This document shows positions 12,269 to 62,596 of a stretch of DNA of 64,000 nucleotides, piece after piece. Every line of letters starts with the position of its first letter. Within the stretch, counting starts at the first letter, position 1. The notes below the pieces were generated by a model. It was not told the DNA's origin. It did no database searches and worked only from the letters and a program-made list of their open reading frames with translations. A program made the position numbers and the translations under genes. The stretch comes from Candidatus Krumholzibacteriia bacterium. GTDB taxonomy: Bacteria; Krumholzibacteriota; Krumholzibacteriia; WVZY01; JAKEHA01. The DNA lies in NCBI GenBank assembly GCA_029865265.1, contig JAOUHG010000001.1, forward strand, positions 93,213-157,212. The letters run 5' to 3'.

Positions 12269-12272
12269 GAAC

Positions 12273-41006: not shown

Positions 41007-41701
41007 GGATCGACGGAAACGCCCGTGTGTTGCGTGAAGGAGAATGAGAAATCACCGATCACAATGGCGCAGCCGTCGGACAGCTCGCGGTCCTTCACCG
41101 CCTCGCCGTCCACCTTGACGCGCGTCCTTCCATCCAGATGGCGGATCGAGTAATGCCCGCCAAGAAAGCGAATCTCGGCGTGATAGGGCGCGATGCCACG
41201 GCCGCGAATGATGATGTCGGCCGCTTCGTCACTGCCGATGATCATGAGCCCGCGATCCAGTGAGTAGGTCCGCTCGCGGTCCGGTGAGGTTTCGGTGAGC
41301 GTGGCCGGGTTGGTGATGGGGCCGGGCTGGTTATCGGCGCCGGCGAGCAGGGTGGACTCGAACAGCACTGGGTCCGCGGCGACGCTCCCGTCCGGCGCGG
41401 CGACGCGGCAGATGATGTTGTGCTTGCCGATGGTGATGATGTCCCCATGCGACAGTCTCGCATGATCGACGTGCACGCCGTTGACGCGCGTGCCGTTGGC
41501 ACTCTCGTGGTCGCGGATGATGAGGCCGTCCGGTGACATTTCAATGGTGGCGTGCAGTCGCGACACGGACAGGTTGTCGATCACGATGTGGTTGTCGGCC
41601 GTGCGACCGATCTTGATGGCGGTTTCTCCCACCGGCCACCGCCCGAGTTCGCTGCCCTTGAACTCCAGCGAAAGGATGTAGCCGTGCGATGGCTGGCTCA
41701 T
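41003..41701 (-). CDS. protein with two FHA (forkhead-associated) domains
   Basis: Two FHA cores (IKIGRTADNHIVIDNLSVSRLHATI...GTRVNG and MIIGSDEAADIIIRGRGIAPYHAEI...RTRVKVDG). Overlaps the kinase gene start by 4 nt. Confidence 0.75.
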   Translation of the reverse strand: MSQPSHGYILSLEFKGSELGRWPVGETAIKIGRTADNHIVIDNLSVSRLHATIEMSPDGLIIRDHESANGTRVNGVHVDHARLSHGDIITIGKHNIICRVAAPDGSVAADPVLFESTLLAGADNQPGPITNPATLTETSPDRERTYSLDRGLMIIGSDEAADIIIRGRGIAPYHAEIRFLGGHYSIRHLDGRTRVKVDGEAVKDRELSDGCAIVIGDFSFSFTQHTGVSVDP

Positions 41702-41876
41702 GCGTCGTCTCCCGCGGGGATGCGCGTAACGTGTTGTAAGACAATTGAATAAAAGTGCCGGCTGCCAGGGGGAGAGGTGCAAAAAGCATGCCGGGGACAC
41801 CCGCCCCGGGGGCCACGCCGCGCGGCCCTATGCCACCGTCAGCTATTGATCGGCTGGCGCGCCGGGATCGCGGCGC

Positions 41877-42925: not shown

Positions 42926-43270
42926 GTGTCCGACGATCGCGAAAACTACTACCACGAGGCCGACCTGGCCCGCTTTGGTGAGATGGGCGAGAACGTGCCC
43001 GAGCTGGCGAAGAAGTTCTTCGACTGGTACGGCGCGGTATTCGCCGATGGCGCGCTTTCGGCGCGCGAGAAGTCACTCATCGCCCTGGCGGTGGCGCACG
43101 CCGTCCAGTGTCCGTATTGCATCGACGCCTACAGCAAGGACTCGCTGGAGAAGGGCGCCGACCTGGACCAGATGACCGAGGCGGTCCACGTTGCGGCCGC
43201 CATTCGTGGGGGCGCGTCGCTGGTGCACGGTGTGCAGATGAGGAATCACGCCCTCAAGATCGGCATGTAA
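42926..43270 (+). CDS. AhpD-like (carboxymuconolactone decarboxylase family) peroxidase-like protein of the arsenosugar-biosynthesis-associated type
   Basis: 114 aa with the CxxC AhpD core (AHAVQCPYCIDAYS); lies 4 nt upstream of an ArsS-type radical SAM gene. Confidence 0.65.
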   Translation: MSDDRENYYHEADLARFGEMGENVPELAKKFFDWYGAVFADGALSAREKSLIALAVAHAVQCPYCIDAYSKDSLEKGADLDQMTEAVHVAAAIRGGASLVHGVQMRNHALKIGM

Positions 43271-43274
43271 TCCG

Positions 43275-44318
43275 TTGAAGACTTCTCCCTCATTGAAGTC
43301 CCGCGGGGCCGCACTCGCGTCCAGCGATGCGCAACTGCAGGCGCTCGCGGAACTCCCGCTCACGCGTGAATTTCCGGAAGCGCTGGCATCGGCGGGGCTG
43401 CACCCGCTCAAACCCACCGGCATCGAAATAATGCAGATCAATGTCGGGAAGCTGTGCAATCAGACCTGCCGCCACTGCCACGTGGACGCCGGCCCCGACC
43501 GGCGCGAGAGCATGACGCGCGAAACCATGCAGCTGTGCCTGGATGCGCTGTCGCGAACCTCCATTCCCGTCGTTGACATCACCGGTGGGGCGCCCGAACT
43601 CAACCCGGACTTTCGCTGGCTGGTGGAGCGTTGTCGCGAACTGGGCCGTCATGTGATGGACCGCTGCAATCTCACCATCCTCGAGGTTCCCTCGCAGCGC
43701 GACACGCCCGAGTTTCTCGCCCGGCACAACGTGGAGGTGGTGTGCTCGCTGCCGCACTACCGCGCGGCCGGCACCGACCGCCAGCGCGGCGACGGCGTGT
43801 TCGAAAAGTCGATTGCGGCGCTCAGGCGCCTCAACCAGCTGGGATACGGGGACGGGGTGTCGGGCCTGCGCCTGGTGCTGGTTACCAATCCGGTGGGCGC
43901 GTTCATCCCGGGGGCGCAGGCGTCGTTGGAACGCGAATGGAAGCGGGAACTGCTGCGCCTGCACGGCGTGCGCTTCGATGCGCTGTACTGCATCACCAAC
44001 ATGCCCATCAGCCGCTACCTGGAGTGGCTGATTACCTCTGAGAATCTCGAGGGGTACATGGAGCGGCTGGTCAACGCGTTCAACCCGGTTGCCGCGCGCG
44101 GCGTGATGTGCCGCAACACCATCTCGGTCGGTTGGGATGGCGTCGTCTACGACTGCGACTTCAACCAGATGCTGGATCTTCCGGTGGCGCCGGTGGGTGT
44201 GCGCCACATCCGCGACTTCGATGTCGACGCGCTCAACGCGCGTTCCATCGTTACCGACCGCCACTGCTTCGGCTGCACCGCCGGCGCCGGGTCGAGTTGC
44301 GGTGGCGTAACCTCGTGA
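43275..44318 (+). CDS. arsS: radical SAM protein of the arsenosugar biosynthesis ArsS type
   Basis: CxxxCxxC cluster (CNQTCRHC) near the N-terminus and a C-terminal Cys-rich tail (HCFGCTAGAGSSCGG). The size and the pairing with the AhpD-like gene are characteristic of ArsS. Confidence 0.65.
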   Translation: MKTSPSLKSRGAALASSDAQLQALAELPLTREFPEALASAGLHPLKPTGIEIMQINVGKLCNQTCRHCHVDAGPDRRESMTRETMQLCLDALSRTSIPVVDITGGAPELNPDFRWLVERCRELGRHVMDRCNLTILEVPSQRDTPEFLARHNVEVVCSLPHYRAAGTDRQRGDGVFEKSIAALRRLNQLGYGDGVSGLRLVLVTNPVGAFIPGAQASLEREWKRELLRLHGVRFDALYCITNMPISRYLEWLITSENLEGYMERLVNAFNPVAARGVMCRNTISVGWDGVVYDCDFNQMLDLPVAPVGVRHIRDFDVDALNARSIVTDRHCFGCTAGAGSSCGGVTS

Positions 44319-44331: not shown

Positions 44332-45279
44332 CTAGCCCTTCCCTGGGGCGGCTTTGGTGGTCGCGGCGGTGCCCGTCTGAATCACGATGGCGGCACGCTC
44401 CGCGCCACCCGAATCCACCAGCGTCGTGGTGGTGACCCGCGAGCCTTCGCCGCGCAGGAGCGGCCGCAGGCTGTTGGCGATTTCATCCGCAATCGACTTG
44501 GCCAGCGCAAAGGTGGGCGCGGTGACTTCCACGCGCACCGCGCGGTTGGCATCCCCGCTCTCGTTGATGCGCGAGGCGGCTTCCTGGACGTAGGCCGCTG
44601 GCACCGACGCGGCGTCGGTCGCGATGGCAAACGACATGCGCACGTCGGAGCCCTTCTCGTCCAGGTAGGGCGGAATCTGGAACGACTCACCCACGAAGCT
44701 GCGCTTGTTGCCGGCCTTGTCCATGGCGTTCAGCACGTACGAGTAGGTAAGGTCCGTCCGTGCCGGAGTGCCATCCAGGGTGGCTCCGTCCCACGCGATT
44801 TCGGTGGGCGGCTTTCCCTTGCCTTCGAATGCCGCCACGCGGCCGCCGCGCGAATCCGCCACTTCCAGGGACCAGCGCTCGACGCCGCTCACCTGGGGAC
44901 GGAAACTCGCCACCGGTCCGGTGCGGAAGCCGTCGAACCACGGCTGCGGCGTGTACCACGCGCGGTCGAACGCGGAGCGCGCCAGCAACGGTCCGGTGAA
45001 GTCGAACGACTCGGGTGCGAGCACGATCATCAGGCTTTCCCAGTCGAGGCCCGGTGCCGTTGACGGATCCAGCGTGAGTTCCAGGGGAGGGCGTACGAAC
45101 TGGACGCGCACGCGGTCCTCGCCCTCCACGGTGATGCTTTCCAGCGTCTTGCCCTTGCTGCCGCCCGGAATCGTCATCGAGGTGTCGGTCGGCGCGGCGC
45201 TCTGCTCCGCGGCGTTCGCGGTGGCGGCGAGCGTGGTAAGGGCCAGGGCGCACGCGGTGATGCCGAGTCTGCTGATCAT
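44332..45279 (-). CDS. hypothetical secreted protein (last gene of the TonB-complex operon)
   Basis: Signal peptide (ITACALALTTLAATANA); no recognisable family. Confidence 0.45.
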   Translation of the reverse strand: MISRLGITACALALTTLAATANAAEQSAAPTDTSMTIPGGSKGKTLESITVEGEDRVRVQFVRPPLELTLDPSTAPGLDWESLMIVLAPESFDFTGPLLARSAFDRAWYTPQPWFDGFRTGPVASFRPQVSGVERWSLEVADSRGGRVAAFEGKGKPPTEIAWDGATLDGTPARTDLTYSYVLNAMDKAGNKRSFVGESFQIPPYLDEKGSDVRMSFAIATDAASVPAAYVQEAASRINESGDANRAVRVEVTAPTFALAKSIADEIANSLRPLLRGEGSRVTTTTLVDSGGAERAAIVIQTGTAATTKAAPGKG

Positions 45280-45296
45280 GAGAAACCTGCCTCCGG

Positions 45297-46247
45297 TTAC
45301 TGTGCGTCACTCAACCGGTAGTTGAACGTGATTCGTCCCCACTGCTCTCCCGAGCCGGGCAACGCCTGAAACTTCCATTGGCGCAGTGCCGCCACGGCGC
45401 CGGTATCAAAGTCTGAGAAGCCGCTGGTGCGCTCCACCACGATGTTCTCCTTGATGCGTCCATCGGGGAGAACATAGAAGTACAGCGTCACGGATCCTTC
45501 CACACCGTCGCGCTTGGCCCATTCGGGGTAGCGCGGAACCTCGTACGAGACCAGGGGCCGGCTGGCCACCGGTCCCACCAGTTGCGCCCCGGCCAGGTTG
45601 CGCGACGCGGTGCTGGTGGTAGACGCGGACGGTCCGGGCCTGGCGACATCCGGCTTCGCGACCGGGACCGCCGCCACCGGGGTTCCCGCGCGAGCGTCGG
45701 TTCGTTGCAGCGCCACCGGTGGTCCGGACGCCGGCTTGGCGTCGCGCGACAGCGCGGACGGATTGCTCGCGGGCCGCGCCTCCGCGGTTGTCACGCCGGC
45801 GAGTGTCGGGGTGCCCACCTTGGGCGGCGGCACCAGCGACGCGATGCGCGTGCGGTCGGTGCTGCCGTTCTGTTCCATTGCGTCGATCTTGTCGGAGAGA
45901 ATGTCCGCGACGGCGCGCGTCTGCGGCCGCGGCGCCACTTCCGCGCGCTGCAGCGGACGCTCGAAGTGTTCGGGCGTCTCGGCGGGGTTCGCCGCCTTCT
46001 GTTTGACCTCTTCCACGGGCGCGCTCTTTGTCTCCTCGCGCGCCACCGGGGGAGCAGCCTGTTCCGCGGCCAGCGTGGCCGCGTCGATCCAGGTGATTTC
46101 GGTCAGCCCCGCCGACTCCGATGCCGCCTTGTGCGAGAAGATCAGCAGCAGCAGGATGGCGGCGTGGACGGCCGTGCTGATGGCCATCGATCGCCGTGTC
46201 GAGCGTTCGATGGCATTGAACTCGAGGGTGAGAAATTTCTCGTTCAT
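45297..46247 (-). CDS. TonB-family energy transducer (C-terminal TonB domain)
   Basis: N-terminal TM anchor (AVHAAILLLLIF), a Pro/Ala-rich spacer and a C-terminal TonB fold (YPEWAKRDGVEGSVTLYFYVLPDGRI...AVAALRQWKFQAL). Confidence 0.7.
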   Translation of the reverse strand: MNEKFLTLEFNAIERSTRRSMAISTAVHAAILLLLIFSHKAASESAGLTEITWIDAATLAAEQAAPPVAREETKSAPVEEVKQKAANPAETPEHFERPLQRAEVAPRPQTRAVADILSDKIDAMEQNGSTDRTRIASLVPPPKVGTPTLAGVTTAEARPASNPSALSRDAKPASGPPVALQRTDARAGTPVAAVPVAKPDVARPGPSASTTSTASRNLAGAQLVGPVASRPLVSYEVPRYPEWAKRDGVEGSVTLYFYVLPDGRIKENIVVERTSGFSDFDTGAVAALRQWKFQALPGSGEQWGRITFNYRLSDAQ

Positions 46248-46660
46248 CGCTGGCTGCCTCGCTGGGTGGTCGCGATGGCGATGCGTTTTGCACCGGCGGA
46301 CTTGGCTTCGGAGATCAATGCCTGCACGGTGGCGTAGGGAACCCCCTCGTCTGCGCGAACCACGAGCAGATTGTCCTCTTTGTTCCTCAACTTTTTGTCC
46401 AGGAACGAGGCCACCTGTCCGTAGCCCACCTTGGTGTCGTCGATGGCGATCTCACCCGTTCGGCCGATGGTCAGCGTGACGCGCTGGGAGCTGGCCATGC
46501 TCCGCGTCTCGGCGGGCGGAAGCCTGATCTCCATGTCGGACAGTGCAATCATCGGCGCCGTGACCATGAGGATGATGACCAGCACCAGTGCCACGTCGAT
46601 GATCGGTGTCACGTTGATCTTGGCAACCGTGGATGTATGCTCGATGAAGGGTCGGTTCAT
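46244..46660 (-). CDS. ExbD/TolR-family biopolymer transport protein (copy 2)
   Basis: INVTPIIDVALVLVIILMV signature TM; its stop overlaps the TonB start. Confidence 0.75.
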   Translation of the reverse strand: MNRPFIEHTSTVAKINVTPIIDVALVLVIILMVTAPMIALSDMEIRLPPAETRSMASSQRVTLTIGRTGEIAIDDTKVGYGQVASFLDKKLRNKEDNLLVVRADEGVPYATVQALISEAKSAGAKRIAIATTQRGSQR

Positions 46661-46673
46661 GTGTTGCCTCGGT

Positions 46674-47087
46674 CTACTTTTCGACGACGGCGATCTCACC
46701 CGCGCCGCATTGCTTCGCCTGGTCGAGAACATTGACGAACGCCCCGTGGCTGACCCCGCTTCGGCAGCTGATAACGACACCGCGCTCCTTGGCGGTGTCG
46801 ATGAGGGGCCGCAGCGTCTCGCTCAGGTCGGCGCGCATGAGCGCGGTGCGGTTGACCAGCACGGTCGAGTCCGAGAGGAGGACGATCTCGACCCGCGGGT
46901 CACGCTCCTGCTTTTTGGCGCTCTTGGCGGCCTGGGCCGCGCTGCGCACGTCGATGCTCGACTCGAACGCCAGCGGCGTTGTGAGCAGCAGCATCACCAC
47001 CAGCACCAGCGAGACGTCGATCAACGGCGTCACGTTGACTTCGTGGTTGGACCCGTCGGGTCCGTCTTGTCTGCGGAAGAAGCGCAA
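46674..47087 (-). CDS. ExbD/TolR-family biopolymer transport protein (copy 1)
   Basis: VNVTPLIDVSLVLVVMLLL signature TM. Confidence 0.75.
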   Translation of the reverse strand: MRFFRRQDGPDGSNHEVNVTPLIDVSLVLVVMLLLTTPLAFESSIDVRSAAQAAKSAKKQERDPRVEIVLLSDSTVLVNRTALMRADLSETLRPLIDTAKERGVVISCRSGVSHGAFVNVLDQAKQCGAGEIAVVEK

Positions 47088-47102
47088 GCTTGTTCCTCCT
47101 GG

Positions 47103-47813
47103 TCAACCCACGCTGACCGGCTGCGGTGCGGGCATGCTCTGGGTGGCCGATTCGCGCACACCGTCGGTCGGACGCGGACTCGACGGTCCGGAACCACTGC
47201 GCCGGGCCAGCCACGCGCGGATGGTGCGGGCGTGGTTCTCCGACATGGTGAGCATGACGGTGGAGCGCCGGATGAAATGGTTGTACAGGATGAGCGCGGG
47301 CACGGCGACGACGAGTCCCACCGCCGTCGTGACGAGCGCCTCGGCGATACCCGCGGCCACAACCGTCGGGGCCGCCGACCCCACGCGCGCCATGTCGTGG
47401 AAGGCACGCATGATGCCCCACACGGTTCCGAGCAGTCCCACCAGCGGGGCGGCACCGGCCATGGTTCCCAGCACGTTGAGGTTGCGCTCCAGCAGCAGCT
47501 TCTGCCTGCTCAGCTCCACGTAGATCTTCTCGTCGAGATCCGCGACTTCCTCGCTCTGCGCGCCGACGACGATCTCGAGCACCGGGCCCACCGGGTGCGT
47601 GCACTTGCCACAGCTCCACAGGGCTTCCTTGACCTCGCCCTTCTTGAGCCGCTGCGAAACCTCGTGCGCCATGGTGTCGGGATTGCCGCGGCGGCGCCAG
47701 AAGTAGATGGCCCGCTCGACCGCCACGCCAAGCGTGACGATGCTGAACAGGATCAGGATGATCATCGACGGACTCTCGGCCGTCAGCTTCAACCAGTCGA
47801 ACTCGCTGAACAT
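47103..47813 (-). CDS. MotA/TolQ/ExbB-family proton channel
   Basis: Three TM helices and the conserved C-terminal region (APLVGLLGTVWGIMRAFHDM...GIAEALVTTAVGLVVAVPA). The ATG is preceded by AGGAGG. Confidence 0.8.
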   Translation of the reverse strand: MFSEFDWLKLTAESPSMIILILFSIVTLGVAVERAIYFWRRRGNPDTMAHEVSQRLKKGEVKEALWSCGKCTHPVGPVLEIVVGAQSEEVADLDEKIYVELSRQKLLLERNLNVLGTMAGAAPLVGLLGTVWGIMRAFHDMARVGSAAPTVVAAGIAEALVTTAVGLVVAVPALILYNHFIRRSTVMLTMSENHARTIRAWLARRSGSGPSSPRPTDGVRESATQSMPAPQPVSVG

Positions 47814-47835
47814 CGGGATGCCTCCTCTTTGGCCG

Positions 47836-50800
47836 TTACCGGCGGGACTCGAGCTCGGTCGCACGTTCCTTGGCCGCGACGACGAGCTCCGGATCCGTCG
47901 CGTTCTTGATGAGATCGCGATAGGCGGTGAGCGCCTTCCCGAACTCCTGGTTTCTCTCGTGCACTGCGGCACTGCGCGCCAGGGCCGAGAGACGGTATGG
48001 ATTGGACTTGTCGCCGCACTTCGCGGCAGCCGCGTAGGAAGAGAGCGCGGCCTTCTCGTCGCCTGACTGTTCCTCGCAGTAACCGGCCCGGAACTGCACC
48101 TCGACGCGCAGATCGGTTTCGAGACTCGCCGCCAGGGCCGCGTTGTACTCGCGCGCTGCCTCGGCGTAACGGCCCGCGTCCTCGTTGATGGCACCGAGCT
48201 GGAATGCGACTTGGCCGGCACGACGGTCGCGCGGATAGTCCGCCCGGTACTGCTCGAGCAGGGCCTGTGCGGCATCTACGTCGCCGAGCATGCGCTGGCA
48301 CAGGGCCAGGTTGTAGCGGGCGGCGGATCTGAGTTCAGCCGGGACGCTGTCGGAGAGTACGGCGGTGAAGTCCACCGCCGCGCGCATGTAGTCGCCCTCT
48401 GCGAAACGGCTGGCGCCCAGTTGCAACTGCACGGTCGGACGCAGCTCGCTCGCCGGGAAGAACGTGACGAACTGTTCCCACGCACCGCGCGCCTCGGCTT
48501 CGCGACCGGAACGGCTGTACGAGTCGCCCATCAGGTAGAGTGAGCGGTCGCCGGCCGAGTAGGAGGGGAACTGGCTGACGACACGGCGGAACGCCTCCGC
48601 GGCGCCCTCGAAGTCATCCGCCTGGTAGCGCCGCAGTGCGATCTCATACTGGGCATCCGCGGCGAAGCTGCTGGAGGGGAAGCGCTCCACCAGTTCGGCC
48701 AGCACTTCCTCGCCGTTCTCTTTCTGGCCCAGCTGATACAGGGCCAGCTCGATGCCGCGTTTCGCATCCTCAGCCACCGCGTGGTTGGGGAAGCGCTCGA
48801 TGACCATGGAGTAGGCCTCGATGGACTCCGGATAGTGGCCGGCGTTGTAGTCGCACTGCGCGATGCGCAGCGTTCCCACCGCCGACGAGCGGCTGTCCGC
48901 AAAATTGGTGGTGAGGCTCAGGTAACAGGCCTTCGCCTCTTCGTAGTGGCCCGCGGTGAAATAGACGTCACCCGCCCGCACCAGCGACTTCTCCGCGATG
49001 GGGGCGGTGGGGTCCATCCGCGCGACTTCCTCCCAGCGGTCCACGGCGTCGCCGTCCTGTCCCAGGCGCAGGTAGCACATGCCGGCCTGGTAGAGGGCCT
49101 GCGCACGGTCGGGGTGCGACGGGAAGCTGGCGAGGAACGATTCATAGGCCTTGGCGGCCTCTTTGTAGTGCTTCTCGTTGAAGAGAATGTGCGCCTTGTT
49201 GAGATAGGCGAAGCTCATGTCGCTCGACGCGCCGCTGGACGCGTAGCGGGCCAGCATGCGGTCCTGCGTCTGCATGGCCAGGTCGAGCTCGCCTTCCTGC
49301 GAGTAGGACCACGCCAGCAGCCGGTACGCGGGTACCGCGACGTCGGGGGTGGTGAACTCGGCGAGCAACTGCGTCAGCATCTGCTGCGCCTCGTCCTGCC
49401 GGCCCTGTGCGGCCAGAGCGTCAGCGTCGATCAGGAGTGCATTCGCGCGCCACAGCGACTTGCTGGGCGGCATGCGCTGCAGCAGCAGGTGGGGAATGCC
49501 CGAGAGCAGCCCCAGGTTTCCGGCGCGGTGGTAGGAGAGTTCCAGCAGGCACAGTGACGCCTCCACCAGTTCCTGCTTCTCCGGCGTTTCGAATTCGATG
49601 GTGCCCTCGCCGCGCACGGGCGCATAACGATCGAGCACGACGCGGAAGTAGGGCGCGGCCGCCGCGTAGCGGTTCTGCGACAGCAGTCCCGCGCCGGCCA
49701 GGTAGGCCGCGGCGGGTGCCTCGCGCGACGTCGGGTATCCGGAAACGACCGCCTGGTACGCACCCGTTGCCTCGGCGGGCCGGCCCAGGGCGTCGAGACT
49801 GCGCGCCACGCGGTACTGCGCCAGCGAGGCCAGGCCATGCTGGAAGTAGCGCGTCAGCACCTTGTTGAACTCGACGATGGCGGCCTCGTACTGCTCCGCC
49901 GAAAACAGCACCTCGCCCAGAACAATCTGTGCGCGTGCGGCGATCGTCGTGCCGGCGTACTCGGAGGCGACGGCACGCAACTGCGCCGTGCCTTCGTCGA
50001 ATTCGCCGGCCAGAACCGTGGATGCTGCTCCGCGCAGGCGCGCCTCGGCGCGGACCTCATCGGAGTTCACCGCGGCAACGACTTTGGCGAACTCCTCCGC
50101 CGCGCTCGCGTAGGCGCCGCTCTTGAAGAAGACATTGGCCTTGGCCAGTCTGGCGACGTCGCGCAGGCGCGGATCGTCGTAGCGGTCCGCGACTTCCTGG
50201 TAACGGGCGGCCGCCTTGAGCGGTTTGCCGGTGGCCTCGTCGGTGAGCGCGCGCAGGTACACGCACGCCGGATCCAGCGACGTCCCGCTCGGCTCCACCT
50301 TCACGTCGGAATAGCGACCCTCCAGGAACGCCGTGGTTCCCTCGGCCAGCGTCAAGCGGGCGTCATTGGCGAGCCACGGGAACTCGCGTCGGGTCTGCGC
50401 GAGTATAGAGACGGCCAGACCGACGCTGTCGCGGCGAATGGCGTTCCACGCGCGCGCCAGCATTGCCTCGCTGCGCGCGGGAGAGTTCGGGTTGTCTCGC
50501 AGCCACTTCACCCACTCCTTCTCCGCGTCCTCGTCGCGTCCCGTCGCTTCCAGAGTCTGGATGGCGGCGAGGCTCGCGTCGTCCACGAGGGGCGTCCTCT
50601 TTGCGTCCTTGCCAGCCTCGCGGTACGTCTTGTTGGCCTGGTCGTACTGCCCGAGCGCAAACAGGATCTCGCCGGCCAGGAAACGCGCCGCGGCCTTCTG
50701 CTCCTTCGGCACATCACCATCCAGGAACAGGCTCATGCGGCGGTCGAGATCCACGATGGCGGCGGTTCTTTCCGGCGCCGGCAGGTGCTGCGCCGCGTCG

Positions 50801-50946
50801 AACGCCAGCCCGATGTCGGAAAGTGGCTCCACCGGTGCACCCGCGCGCGCAGCTGCAGACACGGCAATCGTGCCGAGCGCGAGCAGTGCCAGCGCGGCGC
50901 CCTGGCGGCGCATGCGTTCGGCCATGAGAGTCAACTGGTTGCGCAT
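47836..50946 (-). CDS. large (1036 aa) TPR-repeat protein with signal peptide
   Basis: N-terminal signal (ALALLALGTIAVSAAARA) followed by >20 TPR-like units. It sits 22 nt upstream of ExbB on the same strand. Confidence 0.7.
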   Translation of the reverse strand: MRNQLTLMAERMRRQGAALALLALGTIAVSAAARAGAPVEPLSDIGLAFDAAQHLPAPERTAAIVDLDRRMSLFLDGDVPKEQKAAARFLAGEILFALGQYDQANKTYREAGKDAKRTPLVDDASLAAIQTLEATGRDEDAEKEWVKWLRDNPNSPARSEAMLARAWNAIRRDSVGLAVSILAQTRREFPWLANDARLTLAEGTTAFLEGRYSDVKVEPSGTSLDPACVYLRALTDEATGKPLKAAARYQEVADRYDDPRLRDVARLAKANVFFKSGAYASAAEEFAKVVAAVNSDEVRAEARLRGAASTVLAGEFDEGTAQLRAVASEYAGTTIAARAQIVLGEVLFSAEQYEAAIVEFNKVLTRYFQHGLASLAQYRVARSLDALGRPAEATGAYQAVVSGYPTSREAPAAAYLAGAGLLSQNRYAAAAPYFRVVLDRYAPVRGEGTIEFETPEKQELVEASLCLLELSYHRAGNLGLLSGIPHLLLQRMPPSKSLWRANALLIDADALAAQGRQDEAQQMLTQLLAEFTTPDVAVPAYRLLAWSYSQEGELDLAMQTQDRMLARYASSGASSDMSFAYLNKAHILFNEKHYKEAAKAYESFLASFPSHPDRAQALYQAGMCYLRLGQDGDAVDRWEEVARMDPTAPIAEKSLVRAGDVYFTAGHYEEAKACYLSLTTNFADSRSSAVGTLRIAQCDYNAGHYPESIEAYSMVIERFPNHAVAEDAKRGIELALYQLGQKENGEEVLAELVERFPSSSFAADAQYEIALRRYQADDFEGAAEAFRRVVSQFPSYSAGDRSLYLMGDSYSRSGREAEARGAWEQFVTFFPASELRPTVQLQLGASRFAEGDYMRAAVDFTAVLSDSVPAELRSAARYNLALCQRMLGDVDAAQALLEQYRADYPRDRRAGQVAFQLGAINEDAGRYAEAAREYNAALAASLETDLRVEVQFRAGYCEEQSGDEKAALSSYAAAAKCGDKSNPYRLSALARSAAVHERNQEFGKALTAYRDLIKNATDPELVVAAKERATELESRR

Positions 50947-50959
50947 GTCCTTCTCCTCG

Positions 50960-52246
50960 TCAGTGAACGATCACCGGAACGCTGCCCTGCGGACCCGACG
51001 TTGTGATCTCGACGGTCTTGTTCTCGGTACGCAGCACCCGTCCCTCGTCGTCGGTGACGGTCATGCGGTAGTGGTAGATGCCGTCGGGAAGGGTCATGCC
51101 GTTCTCGTCCTTGCCGTCCCACATGACGTGCGCGGGCGGAACACCCAGACCGCCGAACGAACGCACGGTTTCGCCGTGCTTGTCGACGATCGCCAGGTGC
51201 CATTCCCGGGTTTCGGCCTTGGTGCGCGCCTTGATCTCAAACTTGGTCACGGAGTTCTCGCCCAGCGGAGAGAACACCTGCGGTGTCGCCGTCGACGTGG
51301 CAAAGAAGCCGCCGAAACGGTACGAGAGCGCCACGCGGTGGATGATGCCGAGGTCGTGGTCCGACATGCCGTAGTCGAACTGCAGGCCCTGGTTGAGGCG
51401 GTAACTGAAGCCACCCGCGGGCTCGCTCTCAAAGAATCCGGCGCGCAGGCCGAAGGCCTCGTAGAGCCACACTTCGGTGCCGGCGCGGAACGTCGTGCCG
51501 GGGCCATCGCGGTGGTCGACTTCCAGCGAGAGCAGGCCCTTGCCGTTCAGGTATCCGAGCCCCAGGCCGCCGCGCACTTCGAGCGGGAAGGACTCTTCGA
51601 CATCGCGCGCGGTCAGGGTGGGACCACCGATGTTGAGCACCGACGCGCCCAGGCGAACCCGGGGCGTGATGCCGTACATGAGGCCCATGTCGAAGCCGAC
51701 GCCGGAGGCGTCGGCGTCTTCCACCTGCTGACGGATGATCTTGATGTTGGCACCCACCGAAAAGCGCGGAGAGAACGCCTTGGATCCCGAAATCAGGAAT
51801 GCCATGTCGCTCTGCTTGAACTCGCCCAGCGATTCGTTCAACTCGTTGGTGCGTTCGAAGTCACCCGAGTTGAGCGCCAGCATGGTGAAGCCGATGGTGG
51901 GGAGCGTTCGCGCCGGGACGGTGAAGCTGAACGCGTTGACGGACGTGCCCTCGAAGTAACGCGCGGTCTCCAGCGCGAACGCGTTCTGCGACTGCAAAAC
52001 CAGCCCGGCCGGGTTCCACACCGCGCCCAGCGGGTCGTCCGCCGCGGCCACGAAGGCGCCACCCAGGCCGACCGCACGCGCCGAGACATAGTCCGACAGC
52101 CAGTCGCCGGGAACGCCGTAGCTGGCGTCCTGGGCCGCCGCCGGCGCGGGCATGACGGCGGCGATCAACGCCGCTGCCAGCACCAGCCGGGTTGCGTGGC
52201 CGCTCATCGTGGTCAAAATGGATCGTGATAGTCCGTTGCGTTTCAT
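50960..52246 (-). CDS. FadL/PorV-like outer-membrane beta-barrel with an NPAG hatch motif, fused to a C-terminal FlgD-Ig-like domain
   Basis: Signal peptide, an N-terminal AVWNPAGLV motif, alternating-hydrophobic beta-strands ending in the aromatic ALSYRF, then an FlgD-Ig-like segment (HVMWDGKDENGMTLPDGIYHYRMTV). Confidence 0.5.
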   Translation of the reverse strand: MKRNGLSRSILTTMSGHATRLVLAAALIAAVMPAPAAAQDASYGVPGDWLSDYVSARAVGLGGAFVAAADDPLGAVWNPAGLVLQSQNAFALETARYFEGTSVNAFSFTVPARTLPTIGFTMLALNSGDFERTNELNESLGEFKQSDMAFLISGSKAFSPRFSVGANIKIIRQQVEDADASGVGFDMGLMYGITPRVRLGASVLNIGGPTLTARDVEESFPLEVRGGLGLGYLNGKGLLSLEVDHRDGPGTTFRAGTEVWLYEAFGLRAGFFESEPAGGFSYRLNQGLQFDYGMSDHDLGIIHRVALSYRFGGFFATSTATPQVFSPLGENSVTKFEIKARTKAETREWHLAIVDKHGETVRSFGGLGVPPAHVMWDGKDENGMTLPDGIYHYRMTVTDDEGRVLRTENKTVEITTSGPQGSVPVIVH

Positions 52247-52260
52247 GTCTGTTCCTCCGC

Positions 52261-55200
52261 TCAGCGAACGACCGCGATCTTGCGGCGCATGGAATGAAGC
52301 GTTTCGCCGTTACCGTTGGCCTGGATGTAGACGATGTAGCCACCCGTGGCAACGGTCTTGCCGTCCCCGTTCTTTCCATCCCAGACGAACTCATTCAATC
52401 CGGCCGTCCCTCCCTGTTGTCCGGAGGCAAACGTCTTCTCGAAGACGAGACCGCCGGTGAGGGTGAAGATGCGCATGCTGACGGTCGCGTTGTCCGAGAG
52501 CTTGTAGGCGATCGTCGTCGGCGTCTCACCCGGGTGGAACGGATTGGGGTAGTTGGATATGTAGCCGCCATCCGCGTTGGGATCGACGAGGGCGGTCTGG
52601 ATGTCGAGCTCTGCGGCGAGTGCGCCGGCCACCGCGCGCACGCGGCTGGTCTGCGGCTCGCGTGGCGAGTGGAAGTCGCAGCGCGCGGACCCGTTGGCCT
52701 GCGTGAGCGAGTCGATGGGTGTCAGCGTTCCACCGCCCAGCAGGAGCGAGAAGGCGGTGGCCTGGCCCGGGACGCCATTCTGATAGGCGTCGACCACGCG
52801 CGCGCTGACCGTCGCATGCTTGTTGCCGCCCACCCAGGACGGGCTGCTCGACATCACGATGTCCGTGGGCGCGCCCGGCGACACGGTGATTACTTCCGAT
52901 GCGGCGGGAGCGTTGCCGGCGTCGTCGCGCACGATGAGCACGATCGGTTCCGCGAAGGTGTAGGTCTCCGCCATCGCGCGCTGGCCCTGCAGGAGCTGGA
53001 ACTGCGTGTTGAGCAGTGTCCCGCGCCCCGCGGCCTGCGTGGAGGCGTTCTGCACCTCGACGGTGACGAAGGAGTTGATCTCCTGGATGACGCTGCCGGC
53101 GTCGTTGGTCACCTTCACGGTGAGGGTGAACTGCTCGCCGGCCTGCACGTTGAGCGGCGTGACTTCCGCCTCGAGGTGGAAGCCGCTCGAGATGGCGCGC
53201 ACCTGCGTGGTGCTCACCGGCATCGAGGGCTGGTTCACGTTGGAGGCGGTGATCTGCTGGAATCCGCCCGTCGACAGGCGGATGTTCATTGTCGCCACGC
53301 CGTCGACCATTGCCTGGTCGGCGGGAAGTTGCGCCAGGGGATCGCCCGACGTGATGCGGATGACGTCCGTCGCGCCGGTGACCGGGTTGTACCACTGGTC
53401 GGTGGCGTAGATGGTGAGGTTGAACGAATAGTTGATCGACTGGTCGGTCGCCGTTCCGGCGCGTCCCTCCGGGGTTCCCGGCGCAATCGTCTCACCCGGG
53501 CACAACAGCACGATGCGGCTGTAGGGGCCACCGGTCACGTACACCTGGCTCGAGGTGTGGGGCAGGATGGCCGAGTTGGTGGCGTGCGTTGCGGTGATGC
53601 GCTGGTACCCGGATCGGTACAGCGTCACGGACTGCACGAGTTCGCCGTTAACGAGCGTCACCGTTCCCGGCATGCCCGCGAACAGGTCGGTGGACGTCAG
53701 GTCGACATTGTCGTTGATGCCGGGCACGCGGTTCCAGAACTGATCGACCGCGCGAATGGTGGCGTTGAACGGCGTTCCCGCCTGCTGATCCGTTGGCGTG
53801 CCCGTGAAGCCGATGGCGGTGCCACCCGCGGGCGTCTGGCCGGGGAGCAACACCTGCAGCTTGGCCATGGGGCCCGCATTCACGACGAAAGCATTGCTGG
53901 TTCCGGTGTGCGGGGGCGCGGAGAAGTCGGAACAGGTAACCGACACCGAGCCGCCGGCACCGCGGAAGACCATGGAGCCCGTCCACACACCGTTGGTGAA
54001 CACGATTGCCTCGGGCGAAATGCTGCCGGGACCCGTGTTCGCGATCAGGATGGCGTTGCCGGCGTAGCCGGGGACGGTGTTGCCGCCCGCGTCGGTGGCA
54101 CGAACCGTCACCGGAACCGCCTGGCCGGCCGTCACCGGGCCGGTAATGGGGTCGAACTCGAAGTGGTGCGCGCCGCTCGCCATCACCATGATGCCGGCCG
54201 ATGTCATGCTCTGGATGGAGCCGTTGCTCTGGTCGTTGACGGTGAGGGTCTGCGTGCCCACCGTGTTGAGCGTGAAGGTGAAGCTGCGGAAGCCATTGGT
54301 GAGTGCTCCGGTGACGGGCGTCGCGCCGGCGTCGCTGGAGGTGATGCGCACGTTGTCGCCGCTCGGAACCGGGTTCCAGTAGGCGTCGGTGGCGTAGACG
54401 TCCACCGAGAATGCGACGGCCGCCGTCTGCGACGCCGGGCTCCCCAGCAGTCCCGCCACGCTGCCCGGCAGGGGGTCCTGACCGGGAGCGATCACCTGCA
54501 GGCGGTTGAAGGGGCCGGGATGCACGGTGAACGGATCGCTGGTTCCGTTGATGGAAGGATCCGCCGCCAGGTAGGCAACAATGTTCACGTTGCCGCGGTT
54601 GATGCTGGTCTGGTCGGCGCGGTACATGGTAACGCTGCCCGACCAGGTTCCGCCCGACAGGGTCACGGTCGCGGGGCTGATGCGGCCGTCGCCGTAGCTC
54701 GTTACCTCGTTCAGGCTGATGGGGCCACTATAAGGAACGGTGCTGCCGCCGGGGTCCACCGCGGTGATGGAAATGGACATCGGCTGGCCGGCGTACTGGT
54801 TCTTCTGGTTGATGCGCGAGAACTCGAACCCCTGCAGCAGGTACGACGACACGCTGGAAGACGTCGCCAGCGGAATGGTCGGGTCCGATTGGTCATCCGC
54901 GCTGAACGTGTAACTCCCAGCGGCATTGAGCGTTACCTGCACCGTCGCGGTGCCGCCCGCAAGGCTGAAGGCCGACGGCAGCGATGCGCTCGCGTCGGTC
55001 GACGTCAGCGATACCGAGTTTGTGATTGATGTCACGAGGTTCCAGGACGCGTCGCACGCGCGTACGGTCACCGTAAAGGGAACCCCGACAGTCTGGCTCA
55101 CGGGGGCACCGGACTTGCCGGTCCCCGTTCCCGGCGCGGGAGACTCGCCTGGCAGGATCACCTGCAGGTTTGTATACGACTGCGCGGCCGCGTCATGTGC

Positions 55201-55263
55201 CGGCAGTCCCACCCCGGCGACGACCACCAACATGCAGACAAGAGACGTCAACGCCTTTCGCAC
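52261..55263 (-). CDS. ~1000-aa secreted cell-surface protein with tandem Ig-like/BIG-type repeats and a T9SS-like C-terminal sorting domain
   Basis: GTG start preceded by AAGGAG, signal peptide (LVCMLVVVAGVGLPAHDAAAQ), repeated ~100-aa Thr/Ser/Gly-rich beta-repeat modules, and a tail (YPNPFHPGETPTTIAYKL...FVWDGKNGDGKTVATGGYIVYIQA). Confidence 0.6.
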   Translation of the reverse strand: MRKALTSLVCMLVVVAGVGLPAHDAAAQSYTNLQVILPGESPAPGTGTGKSGAPVSQTVGVPFTVTVRACDASWNLVTSITNSVSLTSTDASASLPSAFSLAGGTATVQVTLNAAGSYTFSADDQSDPTIPLATSSSVSSYLLQGFEFSRINQKNQYAGQPMSISITAVDPGGSTVPYSGPISLNEVTSYGDGRISPATVTLSGGTWSGSVTMYRADQTSINRGNVNIVAYLAADPSINGTSDPFTVHPGPFNRLQVIAPGQDPLPGSVAGLLGSPASQTAAVAFSVDVYATDAYWNPVPSGDNVRITSSDAGATPVTGALTNGFRSFTFTLNTVGTQTLTVNDQSNGSIQSMTSAGIMVMASGAHHFEFDPITGPVTAGQAVPVTVRATDAGGNTVPGYAGNAILIANTGPGSISPEAIVFTNGVWTGSMVFRGAGGSVSVTCSDFSAPPHTGTSNAFVVNAGPMAKLQVLLPGQTPAGGTAIGFTGTPTDQQAGTPFNATIRAVDQFWNRVPGINDNVDLTSTDLFAGMPGTVTLVNGELVQSVTLYRSGYQRITATHATNSAILPHTSSQVYVTGGPYSRIVLLCPGETIAPGTPEGRAGTATDQSINYSFNLTIYATDQWYNPVTGATDVIRITSGDPLAQLPADQAMVDGVATMNIRLSTGGFQQITASNVNQPSMPVSTTQVRAISSGFHLEAEVTPLNVQAGEQFTLTVKVTNDAGSVIQEINSFVTVEVQNASTQAAGRGTLLNTQFQLLQGQRAMAETYTFAEPIVLIVRDDAGNAPAASEVITVSPGAPTDIVMSSSPSWVGGNKHATVSARVVDAYQNGVPGQATAFSLLLGGGTLTPIDSLTQANGSARCDFHSPREPQTSRVRAVAGALAAELDIQTALVDPNADGGYISNYPNPFHPGETPTTIAYKLSDNATVSMRIFTLTGGLVFEKTFASGQQGGTAGLNEFVWDGKNGDGKTVATGGYIVYIQANGNGETLHSMRRKIAVVR

Positions 55264-55404
55264 GCGTATCACTCCTTGAACAATCGGGCACGATGAGGAC
55301 GTGCGCTCCCTTAGCGGGAGCGGCGTACCCATCCACCGCCACAATCGGCAACCAGGTAACGTTAGAATCAGATTCTGTTCAGCAAGTGACGTACCAGCCC
55401 CCAC

Positions 55405-56358
55405 ATGGCATCCGGAGACATGGTGCGAAGGCGCTGGCGTGGCCCTTGCTCTTCCCGGTCTCTTGATCTTTCCCCGCCAGGAAATGGCCGTGGGATTCAA
55501 CGTGGGTGCGTTGTTCACAGGAGGGACGTATTGGCAACGGTGAGCTGGAAGCGTGGACAATTCAGAATTGCCGGTCATCCCGTCAGTGACGAAATGTTCG
55601 ACCAGTGGGTGGTGGGTGAGGGACGTAGCGCGTTGCGGGAAGCATTGCGAACTACGCACCTACAATGGTGGTTTGGCAACACCCGTGCCCGGCGTCGCCT
55701 GCGGCGCGCGGTTCGAAACGCCTTCCGCCCCGGCGGAACCTTCTGCGCCGCCACGGTGAAGCAGCTCGGTCAACTGCCCAGGGTGGTTCGGGGCTGCGCC
55801 ATCGGCATCCAGCGAACCGGCCACCGGCAGCTCTGCACCTTCGACCCCACCGCGGCCATCGTGGTGGTGCCGCGCGGCGTGGTGCGCAACGACATCAAGG
55901 TGCTGCTGGTGCGCGAGCTGGCCGGGCTGGCGCAGGTTCGCGACTTCAACGGGCTAACCGAGCGCGTGCTCTCCTGGGCTGCGATCGGTGCCGAGACCGC
56001 ACTCTTCGACTACATTGCGCGCGGCAAGCAGCACGTGGACGAGAGCGGGCGCGGCATCATTCTGGGCGGGGACAGCGACTTTCGCTGGAACATCAACGCC
56101 ACCAATGGCCACTACTACTACGCCGCGTCACTGGAGGAGCGCGTCGACCTCACCGGCAGCCGCGAACGCCGCCGCTTCCTCGCCGGCATCCGCGAGCTCT
56201 ACCAGGGACAGACCGTGCACCTCAAGCGCATGCGCGCCGAAGAGGCGCGCGAAACGGCGGAGGCCTTCCGCCTCCTGCAGAAAATGGACCCCCGCGCCCG
56301 CGAGACCGCCGCGGACCGCGCGCGCCGCATCCGCGAACCCGCCGGCATGCAGTACTAG
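55405..56358 (+). CDS. hypothetical protein
   Basis: Open frame with no recognisable family. The real start is probably internal (GTG near 55540 or the ATG of MFDQWVVGE). Divergent from the giant surface protein gene. Confidence 0.35.
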   Translation: MASGDMVRRRWRGPCSSRSLDLSPPGNGRGIQRGCVVHRRDVLATVSWKRGQFRIAGHPVSDEMFDQWVVGEGRSALREALRTTHLQWWFGNTRARRRLRRAVRNAFRPGGTFCAATVKQLGQLPRVVRGCAIGIQRTGHRQLCTFDPTAAIVVVPRGVVRNDIKVLLVRELAGLAQVRDFNGLTERVLSWAAIGAETALFDYIARGKQHVDESGRGIILGGDSDFRWNINATNGHYYYAASLEERVDLTGSRERRRFLAGIRELYQGQTVHLKRMRAEEARETAEAFRLLQKMDPRARETAADRARRIREPAGMQY

Positions 56359-56473: not shown

Positions 56474-57658
56474 ATGTCGATTCGCGATTCCATCCTCTCG
56501 TCCGCCGGACGGGCCAACGCGCTCGTGCTGCTGGTGACGGTGTTCGTGCTGCTCGTGGGTGCGGAGATCGCCCTGCGCATTACCTACCACCCCGAGAACC
56601 TCGGCACGGTCATTCGCTACGACGACCTGCTCGGCTGGAGTCTTGTCCCCAACGCCATGCTCATCAGCAACGACACCGGCCGTGGCCTGCACTACCGCAT
56701 GGACATCAACTCCATCGGCCTGCGCGAGGACGAGGTGGACCTGCCCAAGCCGAAGGGCCGCAAGCGCGTGCTCATCCTGGGCGACTCGATTGCGTTCGGC
56801 AGCGGGGTGCAGGGCAACGAGCGCTTCTCGGATCACCTCAAGGGTGAGCTTCCCGGGGACGTCGACATCGTGAACGCGGGGGTTCCGGGGTGGGGAACAG
56901 ACCAGGAGCTGCTCTTCTACGAGCGCGACCTGCGCCGCCTGGAAGCGGACATCGTGGTGCTCGAGTTCACCGCCAACAACGATGTGGTCAACAACGAGCT
57001 GCGCGGCCCGCTCATCGAGGACGGCACCAAGCCGCGATTCCGCTGCAACGACGGTGTGCTGACGCTGGAGCCCCCCAACCGGCCGGCCGTGGTGGCCACC
57101 ACGGCGAAGGCGCGCGTAAAAAGCGTGCTGCGCAAGAGCAGGCTGCTGCTCTTCGTCAAGCGCCGCCTGGAAATGCGCCACTACAAGCAGCACGCGCGGG
57201 AGGATCCCTCGCTGGCCCACGCCGGCTACGAGGCCGACCGCCACCTCTCCCACTGGTCGGTGTACGACACGCGCGGTGGCGTCGCCATCGAGACGGCGTG
57301 GAGCGTCACGGAGTGCATCTTCGCCCAGCTCGCGCACGACTGCCGCGAGGATTCGGTGCGCCTCATCGTCTTTGCGTTCCCGCTCAAGATCGAAGTGGAC
57401 GTGCCCTGGCGCGACGACCTGATCCAGCGCACCCAGACCGACCCGCAGTACCTCGACTACATGCGTCCCTACCGGCGCATGGAGGCGATCTGTGCGCGCG
57501 AGGGAATCGAGTTCGTGTATCCGCTGGACGCGTTTCGGCACGCCCTCGCGGAGGGCCCTTTGTACTTCGAACACGACAGCCACCCCAATGCGCACGCGCA
57601 CGCCGTGGCCGCGGGGGCCCTGCGCGACGTGCTGGTGCCGGCCGTGTCCCGCCGCTGA
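56474..57658 (+). CDS. membrane-anchored SGNH/GDSL-family hydrolase (polysaccharide O-acyl transferase/esterase-like)
   Basis: N-terminal TM (ALVLLVTVFVLLVGAEIAL), GDS block (VLILGDSIAFGSG), a Gly block (NAGVPGWG) and a C-terminal DxxH block. Confidence 0.65.
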   Translation: MSIRDSILSSAGRANALVLLVTVFVLLVGAEIALRITYHPENLGTVIRYDDLLGWSLVPNAMLISNDTGRGLHYRMDINSIGLREDEVDLPKPKGRKRVLILGDSIAFGSGVQGNERFSDHLKGELPGDVDIVNAGVPGWGTDQELLFYERDLRRLEADIVVLEFTANNDVVNNELRGPLIEDGTKPRFRCNDGVLTLEPPNRPAVVATTAKARVKSVLRKSRLLLFVKRRLEMRHYKQHAREDPSLAHAGYEADRHLSHWSVYDTRGGVAIETAWSVTECIFAQLAHDCREDSVRLIVFAFPLKIEVDVPWRDDLIQRTQTDPQYLDYMRPYRRMEAICAREGIEFVYPLDAFRHALAEGPLYFEHDSHPNAHAHAVAAGALRDVLVPAVSRR

Positions 57659-57738
57659 GCCGTGTTTGCGCCTCCGTTGCGTGGCACATCCTGTGCAGTC
57701 TCACCCGTGCGTGGAGTAACCGACCGAGGGAGGACATC

Positions 57739-62532: not shown

Positions 62533-62596
62533 AAGGCATGATCGCGGTGGAGGCAAGGCGCGCGCACGTGCTAGTGTCGCCGCACAAGGAGAAACC

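Follow-up and report, generated by a model that had tools for sequence, protein, structure and literature searches.

Genetic linkage of a Ton-type motor to a PorV/PorQ-type barrel and an immunoglobulin-repeat protein with a type IX-like tail in Krumholzibacteriia and related bacteria

Ton and Tol motors power receptor-mediated import and the mobilisation of Pal, and related motors drive gliding (Agl-Glt) and type IX secretion (PorLM). Here we describe a block of eight genes, g1 to g8, on the minus strand of a 64,000-nt stretch of contig JAOUHG010000001.1 (assembly GCA_029865265.1; the whole stretch, with 65% G+C, is called the window below) from a Candidatus Krumholzibacteriia bacterium. The block encodes a Ton-type motor together with an outer-membrane barrel of the PorV/PorQ family, a very large tetratricopeptide repeat (TPR) protein and an immunoglobulin (Ig)-repeat protein with a tail resembling those of type IX secretion system (T9SS) substrates. 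The window encodes proteins identical to those encoded by a Candidatus Krumholzibacteria metagenome-assembled genome (MAG; P0001, P0121). PorZ and PorU are T9SS substrates with uncleaved tails that are anchored on the surface by PorQ and PorV (PMC10947112), and in the BAM complex of Bacteroidota the FadL-type barrel BamG anchors the surface protein BamH, while the C-terminal tail of BamG contacts periplasmic BamD (PMC12611786). The combination of ExbB, ExbD, a TolR-like ExbD and TonB is the organisation of the general Bacteroidota TonB locus, which serves SusC-type receptors and is represented by the loci of PG0785 in P. gingivalis, TonB3 in B. fragilis and TonB4 in B. thetaiotaomicron (bioRxiv 10.1101/2025.11.18.689179). 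A locus of Fibrobacter succinogenes encodes OmpA, two large TPR proteins, ExbB, ExbD, ExbD and TonB, and its products were detected in cell-envelope and cellulose-bound fractions (PMC6851124, PMC4619616). A survey of TonB/TolA-type transducers contains other TPR-TolQ-TolR-TolR clusters with different transducers, but not this module (PMC12204202), and we found no published description of it in the literature on T9SS of Krumholzibacteria and Latescibacteria, on PorV-ExbB-TPR or on FadL-TonB-T9SS. Every part comes from a known family, and it is the combination for which we found no description.

The eight genes form one deeply conserved unit. A contig profile scan with the alignment of the barrel (g2), restricted to one genome per species, yielded 68 distinct loci from Krumholzibacteriia, Latescibacterota, Eisenbacteria, a bin labelled 'Zixibacteria', UBP1 and other MAGs. 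Carriers of the module include the complete genomes CP070631.1, CP070677.1, CP070763.1, OY970173.1, OY970342.1 and OZ245046.1. These loci were searched by tblastn with the eight window proteins, and each gene was assessed only where the contig offered enough flanking sequence. On this basis, g1 was present in 47/49 loci, g3 in 44/47, g4 and g5 each in 44/45, g6 in 43/44, g7 in 37/39 and g8 in 36/37, and most of the 'missing' genes were genes split by frameshifts in long-read MAGs. Gene order and strand were identical in all loci with a long enough contig, with median gaps of -4 to 36 nt; the two true breaks of synteny among the 68 loci are considered below. Flanks of the block were unrelated between loci, with ribosomal genes at one and glycosyltransferases at another, and clustering of all flank open reading frames (ORFs) revealed no ninth conserved neighbour. 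The largest cluster of flank ORFs was an artefact, in which truncated copies of g1 and unrelated proteins with a C-terminal sorting domain (CTD) had been joined via their tails, and a histidine kinase was encoded upstream of g1 in 3 loci only.

The linkage also extends beyond these groups. A library-wide search with the barrel profile was swamped by proteins with 8-29 tandem FlgD_ig domains, yet it gave distant full-length orthologues of the barrel with its Ig domain. Four distant contigs, at least one of which is WOR-3/Stahlbacteria-like, carry all eight genes in unchanged order, and in all four each of the eight profiles matched the expected gene, with the orthology of ExbD1 and ExbD2 remaining distinct. 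Linkage of g1, g2 and g8 to the motor thereby survives down to approximately 25-35% barrel identity and a tenfold change in the length of g1. The order of barrel, TPR protein, exbB, two exbD and tonB, which an earlier note made from the sequence of the window alone had singled out, is kept in almost all loci where the flank suffices. This conservation as one unit argues that the Ton-type motor, TPR protein, barrel and Ig protein are coupled, either physically or functionally. Some loci show peculiarities of their own. One distant locus (L073, positions 9498-9891 and 14283-14897) has two small PDDEXK_3 genes between g1 and g2 and an additional gene for a 204-aa lipoprotein-like protein between the TPR gene and exbB. 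The full module, with identities of 40-62%, is also present on contig DATJGS010000019.1, which bears the label Candidatus Saccharimonadaceae; this label is probably wrong, because an envelope machine of the Gram-negative type is not expected in Saccharimonadaceae (CPR/Patescibacteria).

We give a probability of roughly one half to the reading that the eight genes encode one envelope-spanning complex, in which the Ton motor works on a unit of barrel and stalk through periplasmic Ig and TPR parts. In the inner membrane of such a complex, an ExbB pentamer and an ExbD1/ExbD2 heterodimer would turn proton flow into force on the TonB-type transducer. In the outer membrane, the 14-strand barrel g2 would grip the uncleaved T9SS-type CTD of g1, as in PorQ-PorZ and PorV-PorU, so that g1 would stand on the cell surface as a stalk. 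The paralogous Ig domains of g2 and g8 would build the periplasmic side together with the TPR scaffold of about 1000 aa, and TonB would dock on this assembly, most likely at the N-terminal strand of g8, and pull. Proton-motive force could in this way do mechanical work on the barrel-stalk unit, be it gating, release, movement or secretion. We infer the contacts between the parts, the surface location of g1 and the use of the work, and a role in adhesion or motility, as envisaged in the earlier note, would be purely conjectural.

The block is arranged like an operon. Coordinates and translations of all eight ORFs between 44332 and 55263 were checked, and the dense minus-strand layout reported previously was verified: from g1 to g8, the spacers measure 14, 13, 22, 15 and 13 nt, followed by a 4-nt overlap of g6 and g7 (46244-46247) and a last spacer of 17 nt. 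Translation of g1 starts at a GTG codon (55263) with AAGGAG upstream of it. The divergent intergenic region of 141 nt (55264..55404) is the presumed operon promoter; a promoter scan gave no sigma-70-like match there, and no Fur box was matched in this region or anywhere in the 64-kb window. No minus-strand terminator was predicted between the eight genes, the lone minus-strand match being weak and located inside g2, and Rfam gave no match in the window. A divergent gene without assigned function (55405-56358, plus strand) borders the block at its 5' side, and a convergent radical-SAM gene (43275-44318, plus strand) does so at its 3' side. The latter, which contains DUF3641, and a gene for a CMD-family protein together span 42926-44318 (plus strand) and run towards the end of the operon, with the stop codons 13 nt apart.

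The outer-membrane half of the proposed complex rests on g2 (50960..52246, minus strand). Its product passes the NCBIfam model of the PorV/PorQ family (115.6 bits, cut-off 90) but misses the equivalog cut-offs for PorQ (97.3 vs 220), PorV (40.6 vs 250) and PorV2 (72.1 vs 325). The AlphaFold2 (AF2) model of g2 (pLDDT 78.7) comprises an N-terminal hatch (aa 39-87) and a barrel (aa 88-311) that has 14 strands according to the secondary structure of the model (hatch and barrel together, 51314..52132), followed by a C-terminal Ig domain. A Foldseek search with this model retrieved PorV (E 1e-9), in agreement with a profile search of the PDB, and FadL and TodX were the next-best folds. Residues W77 N78 P79 A80 G81 (WNPAG) are invariant in 13 g2 orthologues, and W77 N78 P79 A80 remain so in 32. 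The loop between strands beta3 and beta4 (aa 127-144) is long and conserved; in PorV, the corresponding loop reaches into the gate of SprA. Membership in the PorV/PorQ family, the PorV-like fold and the conserved beta3-beta4 loop therefore lead us to read g2 as an anchor barrel. The earlier note had weighed a FadL/PorV-like against a PorP/SprF-like barrel and had taken SprB/SprF as precedent for the block. Sequence and fold decide for PorV/PorQ: PorP/SprF (TIGR03519) gave no match to g2 at E <= 0.01, and a distant orthologue scored 21.2 against a cut-off of 90.55. SprB/SprF thus represents the wrong barrel family, and the fitting precedents are PorQ-PorZ and PorV-PorU, pairs in which the surface protein retains its CTD and is anchored by the barrel.

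Beyond strand 14 of the barrel, g2 continues into a FlgD-type Ig domain (aa 322-415, 51002..51283), which Pfam recognises as FlgD_ig (31.8 bits) and CHU_C (27.7 bits). Relatives of g2 combine the barrel and the Ig domain with an OmpA_C peptidoglycan-binding domain (P0494) or the barrel with C-terminal TPRs (P0502, P0493 and P0521, from candidate division GN15 and others); neither fusion architecture seems to have been described. Barrels with an even number of strands end in the periplasm. This topology, the contact of the BamG C-tail with BamD and the OmpA or TPR fusions among the relatives of g2 place its Ig domain almost certainly in the periplasm. The barrel-TPR fusions would also provide a Rosetta-stone precedent for a contact between g2 and g3. 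The same type of Ig domain occurs in 8-29 tandem copies in hundreds of metagenome-library proteins of 1000-4000 aa (P0241, P0249, P0270 and many others), P0241 having 29 copies in 4065 aa.

The putative partner of the barrel on the surface is the product of g1 (52261..55263, minus strand), a predicted secreted protein of 1000 aa with approximately nine Ig-like domains and a C-terminal sorting domain. Pfam detected Big_1 (805-879) and FlgD_ig (912-984), and the remaining domain types were taken from the sequence and the AF2 model, which is all-beta with a pLDDT of 84.7 and a pTM of 0.39, the low value of the latter being expected for a beads-on-a-string architecture. Foldseek retrieved only generic Ig-repeat proteins (hydin, Nup210, alpha-2-macroglobulin) with TM <0.2 and was uninformative, a sequence search of the PDB with g1 gave no match, and a self-BLAST of g1 for repeats found nothing. 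The CTD (aa 904-1000, 52264..52554) is of T9SS type-A-like character. Its best NCBIfam matches are the C-termini of PorZ (E 1.2e-8) and PorU, it scores 33 with Pfam FlgD_ig (cut-off 27), and its pattern PNPF...WDG...G.Y...R with a basic end is common to three other cargo tails in the window. It can be aligned by eye with the tail of an M1 peptidase, which passes PF18962 at 47.8 bits. The g1 orthologue of 210 aa, which belongs to a WOR-3-like distant locus, passes TIGR04183 (33.3 bits, cut-off 23). Since the tail is PorZ/PorU-like, follows the pattern of cargo proteins, is the most invariant part of the protein and passes TIGR04183 in the shortest orthologue, g1 is likely to be a surface stalk. 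The sorting tail postulated in the earlier note is supported as a probable T9SS-type tail.

The three tailed proteins mentioned above are the M1 peptidase, an ASH-domain protein and a protein of the endonuclease/exonuclease/phosphatase family (23758-25842, plus strand; 56890-58983, plus strand; 60436-62598, minus strand), all of which are predicted to be secreted. The M1 peptidase is a bona fide T9SS cargo by its Por_Secre_tail score, and the other two have FlgD_ig tails. Together they imply a working type IX-style sorting pathway, and we consider that g1 would be exported by the T9SS of the organism and held by g2 through its retained tail. The FlgD_ig-tailed ORF at 56890-58983 overlaps a GDSL-lipase-like ORF (56474-57658, plus strand) by approximately 770 nt in a different frame, so that at least one start or call is wrong.

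Conservation of g1 is unlike that of a passenger. Its orthologues of about 1000 aa are 63-100% identical, and nearly all of them are unnamed or 'hypothetical', a few being annotated as 'FlgD immunoglobulin-like domain containing protein'. Within the group of Krumholzibacteriia, Latescibacterota and Eisenbacteria the length is near-constant, and mean pairwise identity is 0.59 for g1, 0.54 for the barrel, 0.535 for ExbB, 0.51 for the TPR protein and 0.40 for TonB. Conservation varies little among the Ig domains, and invariant residues are most frequent in the tail (24/97 in 28 genomes). At the distant loci the orthologues measure 210, 448, 2161 and 2252 aa, with the same domain types and the same terminal tail in all. 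Because it is conserved like the motor and retains a constant CTD despite these lengths, g1 fits the picture of a built-in subunit whose stalk length differs between lineages, and not that of a fast-evolving adhesin or a passenger cargo. The general idea of an envelope-spanning apparatus energised by proton-motive force and tied to the Ig protein, which the earlier note had put forward, gains from the synteny, whereas its description of the Ig protein as giant cargo does not agree with this pattern.

On the periplasmic side, g3 (47836..50946, minus strand) encodes a predicted secreted protein of 1036 aa that consists of TPRs end to end (Pfam TPR_6, TPR_16 and YfiO). Its N-terminus is signal-like without a lipobox, and its orthologues have 819-1108 aa across all loci. 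NCBIfam matches to tol_pal_ybgF (228.6 bits as eight separate repeat matches), OM_YfiO (151.6 bits) and PorW/SprE (111.5 bits, cut-off 250) suggest similarity of the repeat type to CpoB/YbgF, BamD and PorW, and no equivalog-level membership. The last gene of the block, g8 (44332..45279, minus strand), encodes a predicted secreted protein of 315 aa and has an orthologue in all four distant loci. An N-terminus resembling a signal peptide is followed by a variable linker, a conserved strand, a FlgD-type Ig domain (aa 132-198) and a C-terminal alpha/beta domain without detectable relatives. The Ig domain was assigned through the orthologues, 13/14 of which match FlgD_ig (best E 1.3e-8); g8 of the window itself has no Pfam match, and a sequence search of the PDB gave none either. 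The Ig domains of g2 and g8 match each other's profiles with E 1e-10 to 1e-15, which the tail of g1 does not, and they are by this profile similarity paralogous. The conserved strand (aa 47-61, 45097..45141) reads ESITVEGEDRVRVQF in the window and LPDVVVKAK and LPEIFVEAQ in distant orthologues; G53 and E54 are invariant, and E52, F61, R63, P64 and L66 are conserved to at least 90%. It resembles a TonB box and is, with low confidence, a candidate docking site for TonB.

The motor is encoded by g4 to g7, all of which have the features of a Ton system. The ExbB/TolQ-type proton channel g4 (47103..47813, minus strand; 236 aa) matches Pfam MotA_ExbB with 112 bits and the NCBIfam models tolQ (107.9 bits) and exbB (100.8 bits), both below the equivalog cut-offs. 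It is followed by two ExbD paralogues, g5 (46674..47087, minus strand; 137 aa, TTG start; Pfam ExbD 73.9 bits) and the TolR-like g6 (46244..46660, minus strand; 138 aa; Pfam ExbD 100.8 bits; NCBIfam tolR 86 vs ExbD 64). The transmembrane Asp, which lies in PLIDV in g5, is invariant in both paralogues in 28 genomes. The transducer g7 (45297..46247, minus strand; 316 aa) has a Pro/Ala-rich linker and, at aa 238-312 (nt 45312-45536), a TonB_C domain (Pfam 54.3 bits, TIGR01352 60.4 bits), and in the same 28 genomes both S24 and H28 of the S-x3-H motif in the membrane helix and the P.YP.WA motif of the C-domain are invariant. Judged by these hallmarks, g7 is a canonical TonB, and the invariance of S-x3-H, the YP motif and both ExbD Asp residues argues for a competent motor.

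Several observations weigh against a single complex built around a surface stalk. The tail of g1 in the window scores 16.8 bits with TIGR04183, below the cut-off of 23. An identity of 59% across phyla is unusual for a surface protein and could mean that g1 is not exposed. The comparison of the g8 strand with a TonB box concerns a short motif. Among the loci, an Eisenbacteria genome (OY970342.1; L032) lacks g1 beside the barrel, with a possible remnant of the tail just upstream; a Ser/Thr kinase gene sits at the place of g1. Contig CAWFAD010000006.1 (L044) leaves the cluster inside g3, with unrelated genes after residue 284 of the TPR protein, owing either to rearrangement or to mis-assembly. 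Finally, the gene organisation of the motor half follows that of the general TonB locus in Bacteroidota, and g4 to g7 may serve ordinary receptors encoded elsewhere in the genome.

The last point is developed in the strongest rival explanation, which we regard as rather unlikely and which can coexist with the one-complex reading. It holds that g4-g7 are a housekeeping Ton system for TonB-dependent receptors encoded elsewhere and that the envelope proteins from g1-g3 and g8 share the transcript without being driven by the motor, comparable to the extra genes of the seven-gene Bacteroidota TonB locus. The complete set of TonB hallmarks in g7, the pairing of an ExbD with a TolR-like ExbD as in the PG0785, TonB3 and TonB4 loci, the similar gene series of Fibrobacter succinogenes and the housekeeping genes flanking the block all agree with it, and Latescibacteria genomes carry Plug-domain proteins (PMC4454575). 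The exclusion of nutrient import in the earlier note is consequently not established. Its statement that no TonB-dependent receptor or Fur box lies nearby did hold: no Plug or receptor domain was detected in about 50 scanned ORFs of the window or in six related annotated loci, the rest of the genome being outside this search. The reading as an iron-uptake operon was rejected, since these scans showed no receptor and the window no Fur box. A housekeeping Ton system is harder to reconcile with the absence of an adjoining receptor at every locus examined and with the linkage of g1, g2 and g8 to the motor over deep divergence, which is difficult to explain without physical coupling.

A Tol-Pal-like function in envelope integrity, with TolQ/TolR/TolR/TolA-like proteins, a giant CpoB-like TPR protein and the barrel, g8 and the Ig protein in place of TolB and Pal, appears quite improbable. 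It would account for the slightly better scores of g4 to tolQ than to exbB and of g6 to tolR, for a weak match of the N-terminus of g7 to TolA, for the eight ybgF-type repeats of g3, for the OmpA/Pal-like peptidoglycan-binding domain of the barrel relative P0494 and for the appearance of the module as single-copy and core. However, neither a TolB (PD40) beta-propeller nor an OmpA/Pal lipoprotein gene was found in or beside the block in the window and the six annotated loci, the C-domain of g7 is TonB_C with its YP motif and not TolA_C, and g3, which lacks a lipobox, is four times as large as CpoB/YbgF with its ~260 aa.

We consider it similarly improbable that the block is an alternative type IX engine or attachment module of non-Bacteroidota FCB phyla that serves all CTD cargo, with ExbB-ExbD-ExbD-TonB standing in for PorLM, g3 for PorW/PorKN-type scaffolds, g2 for PorV/PorQ and g1 as a PorZ-like protein. 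At least three other CTD proteins in the window, one of them passing Por_Secre_tail, the PorV/PorQ family of g2, the closeness of the g1 tail to that of PorZ and the 111.5 bits of g3 with PorW/SprE are in line with this proposal, as is the fact that ExbBD and PorLM are both motors of the 5:2 type, but every T9SS-specific equivalog cut-off was missed and the TPR matches are at the level of repeats and not of orthology. Least supported, and very unlikely, is that g2 is a FadL-type channel for a hydrophobic or polymeric substrate whose uptake is energised by TonB, with the Ig protein as surface capture device: g2 does keep a FadL-type hatch and an invariant NPA motif, its next-best folds are FadL and TodX, and Ig-repeat surface proteins accompany uptake systems of Bacteroidota, but we know of no TonB dependence of FadL-type transport, known members of the PorV/PorQ family bind protein CTDs, and no catabolic or transport genes are co-inherited.

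In the most far-reaching reading, the module would be a self-contained, proton-driven outer-membrane machine of Krumholzibacteriota, Latescibacterota, Eisenbacteria, WOR-3 and relatives, with a Ton-type motor replacing PorLM/GldLM for type IX-style secretion and attachment or for stalk movement. We regard this reading as unlikely; if true, it would be the first case in which TonB works on a barrel of the PorV/FadL type in place of a 22-strand receptor. The data show the list of parts, their families and folds and their strict co-inheritance. Across several phyla without cultured members, a canonical set of Ton proteins stays genetically tied to a PorV/PorQ-type barrel and to a protein with a type IX-like tail. 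If the coupling is physical, the barrel-stalk unit would constitute a new class of outer-membrane TonB client and would join Ton and T9SS attachment, which have so far been studied apart, and the block would offer structural work a defined set of eight proteins with a natural minimal stalk variant of 210 aa. If g4-g7 are merely the general Ton locus, the strict co-inheritance of barrel and stalk still calls for an explanation.

Other parts of the window contain a near-complete haem biosynthesis cluster (9795-20131, plus strand) with genes for uroporphyrinogen decarboxylase, a HemN-type radical SAM oxidase, an amine-oxidase-type protoporphyrinogen oxidase, ferrochelatase, glutamyl-tRNA reductase, a fused porphobilinogen deaminase/uroporphyrinogen-III synthase, ALA dehydratase and a class-III aminotransferase. 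A type III polyketide synthase (chalcone-synthase-like) adjoins an ICMT-family membrane methyltransferase (22049-23662, minus strand), a pairing typical of phenolic-lipid biosynthesis. One Ser/Thr kinase gene is followed by that of a protein with two FHA domains (39507-41800, minus strand), and another kinase of this type carries PD40 beta-propeller repeats as a fusion (26952-29639, minus strand). At 475-3210 (minus strand), a GNAT acetyltransferase forms the C-terminal part of a 911-aa fusion protein whose other part resembles ADP-forming acyl-CoA synthetases (CoA_binding, Succ_CoA_lig, ATP-grasp_5), which is the architecture of Pat-type protein acetyltransferases.

Among known systems, Agl-Glt of Myxococcus parallels the block in that it joins a motor of one TolQ-like protein and two TolR-like proteins with TonB-C-like transducers, TPR proteins, barrels in the outer membrane and a surface adhesin, and in that a Ton/Tol-type motor is put to work at the surface and not for import. 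The outer-membrane parts differ, and Glt is without a T9SS-type tail. Membership in Agl-Glt, as opposed to analogy, has to be rejected, since GltC (22.7 bits, cut-off 450) and the AgmX/PglI tail (myxo_SS_tail; 21.9 bits, cut-off 40) were both missed; the analogy drawn in the earlier note does not hold in this sense. With Tol-Pal and CpoB, the block has in common a TolQ/TolR-like motor, a periplasm-spanning transducer and TPRs of the CpoB type, whereas it differs in the lack of TolB and Pal, in the TonB_C domain of its transducer and in the size and non-lipoprotein nature of its TPR protein. BamH is a lipoprotein and not a CTD protein, and no motor genes were reported with BamG-BamH; identity with this pair was rejected because g1 lacks lipoprotein character and the sequence of g2 places it in the PorV/PorQ family.

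The Fibrobacter succinogenes locus (FSU_2396-FSU_2403), from another member of the FCB group, likewise has very large TPR genes directly upstream of exbB-exbD-exbD-tonB and an outer-membrane protein. This protein is of the OmpA family and not PorV-like, and no Ig-stalk gene was reported for the locus, which was compared by description only. The general Bacteroidota TonB locus shows the same succession of one ExbB, an ExbD with a TolR-like ExbD and canonical TonB and is likewise a conserved multi-gene locus, but it is described as energising SusC-type receptors, and we found no PorV-like barrel or CTD protein reported in it. In PorQ-PorZ and PorV-PorU of Porphyromonas gingivalis, a FadL-like 14-strand barrel is paired with a CTD-retaining, barrel-anchored surface protein, and it is with PorZ and PorU that the tail of g1 scores best. 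Unlike PorQ and PorV, g2 misses the equivalog cut-offs and has an additional, probably periplasmic Ig domain, and g1 is an Ig-repeat rod, whereas PorZ is a beta-propeller and PorU a sortase. The porQ and porZ genes come without the Ton-type motor, the giant TPR protein and g8, to all of which the g1/g2 pair is hard-wired.

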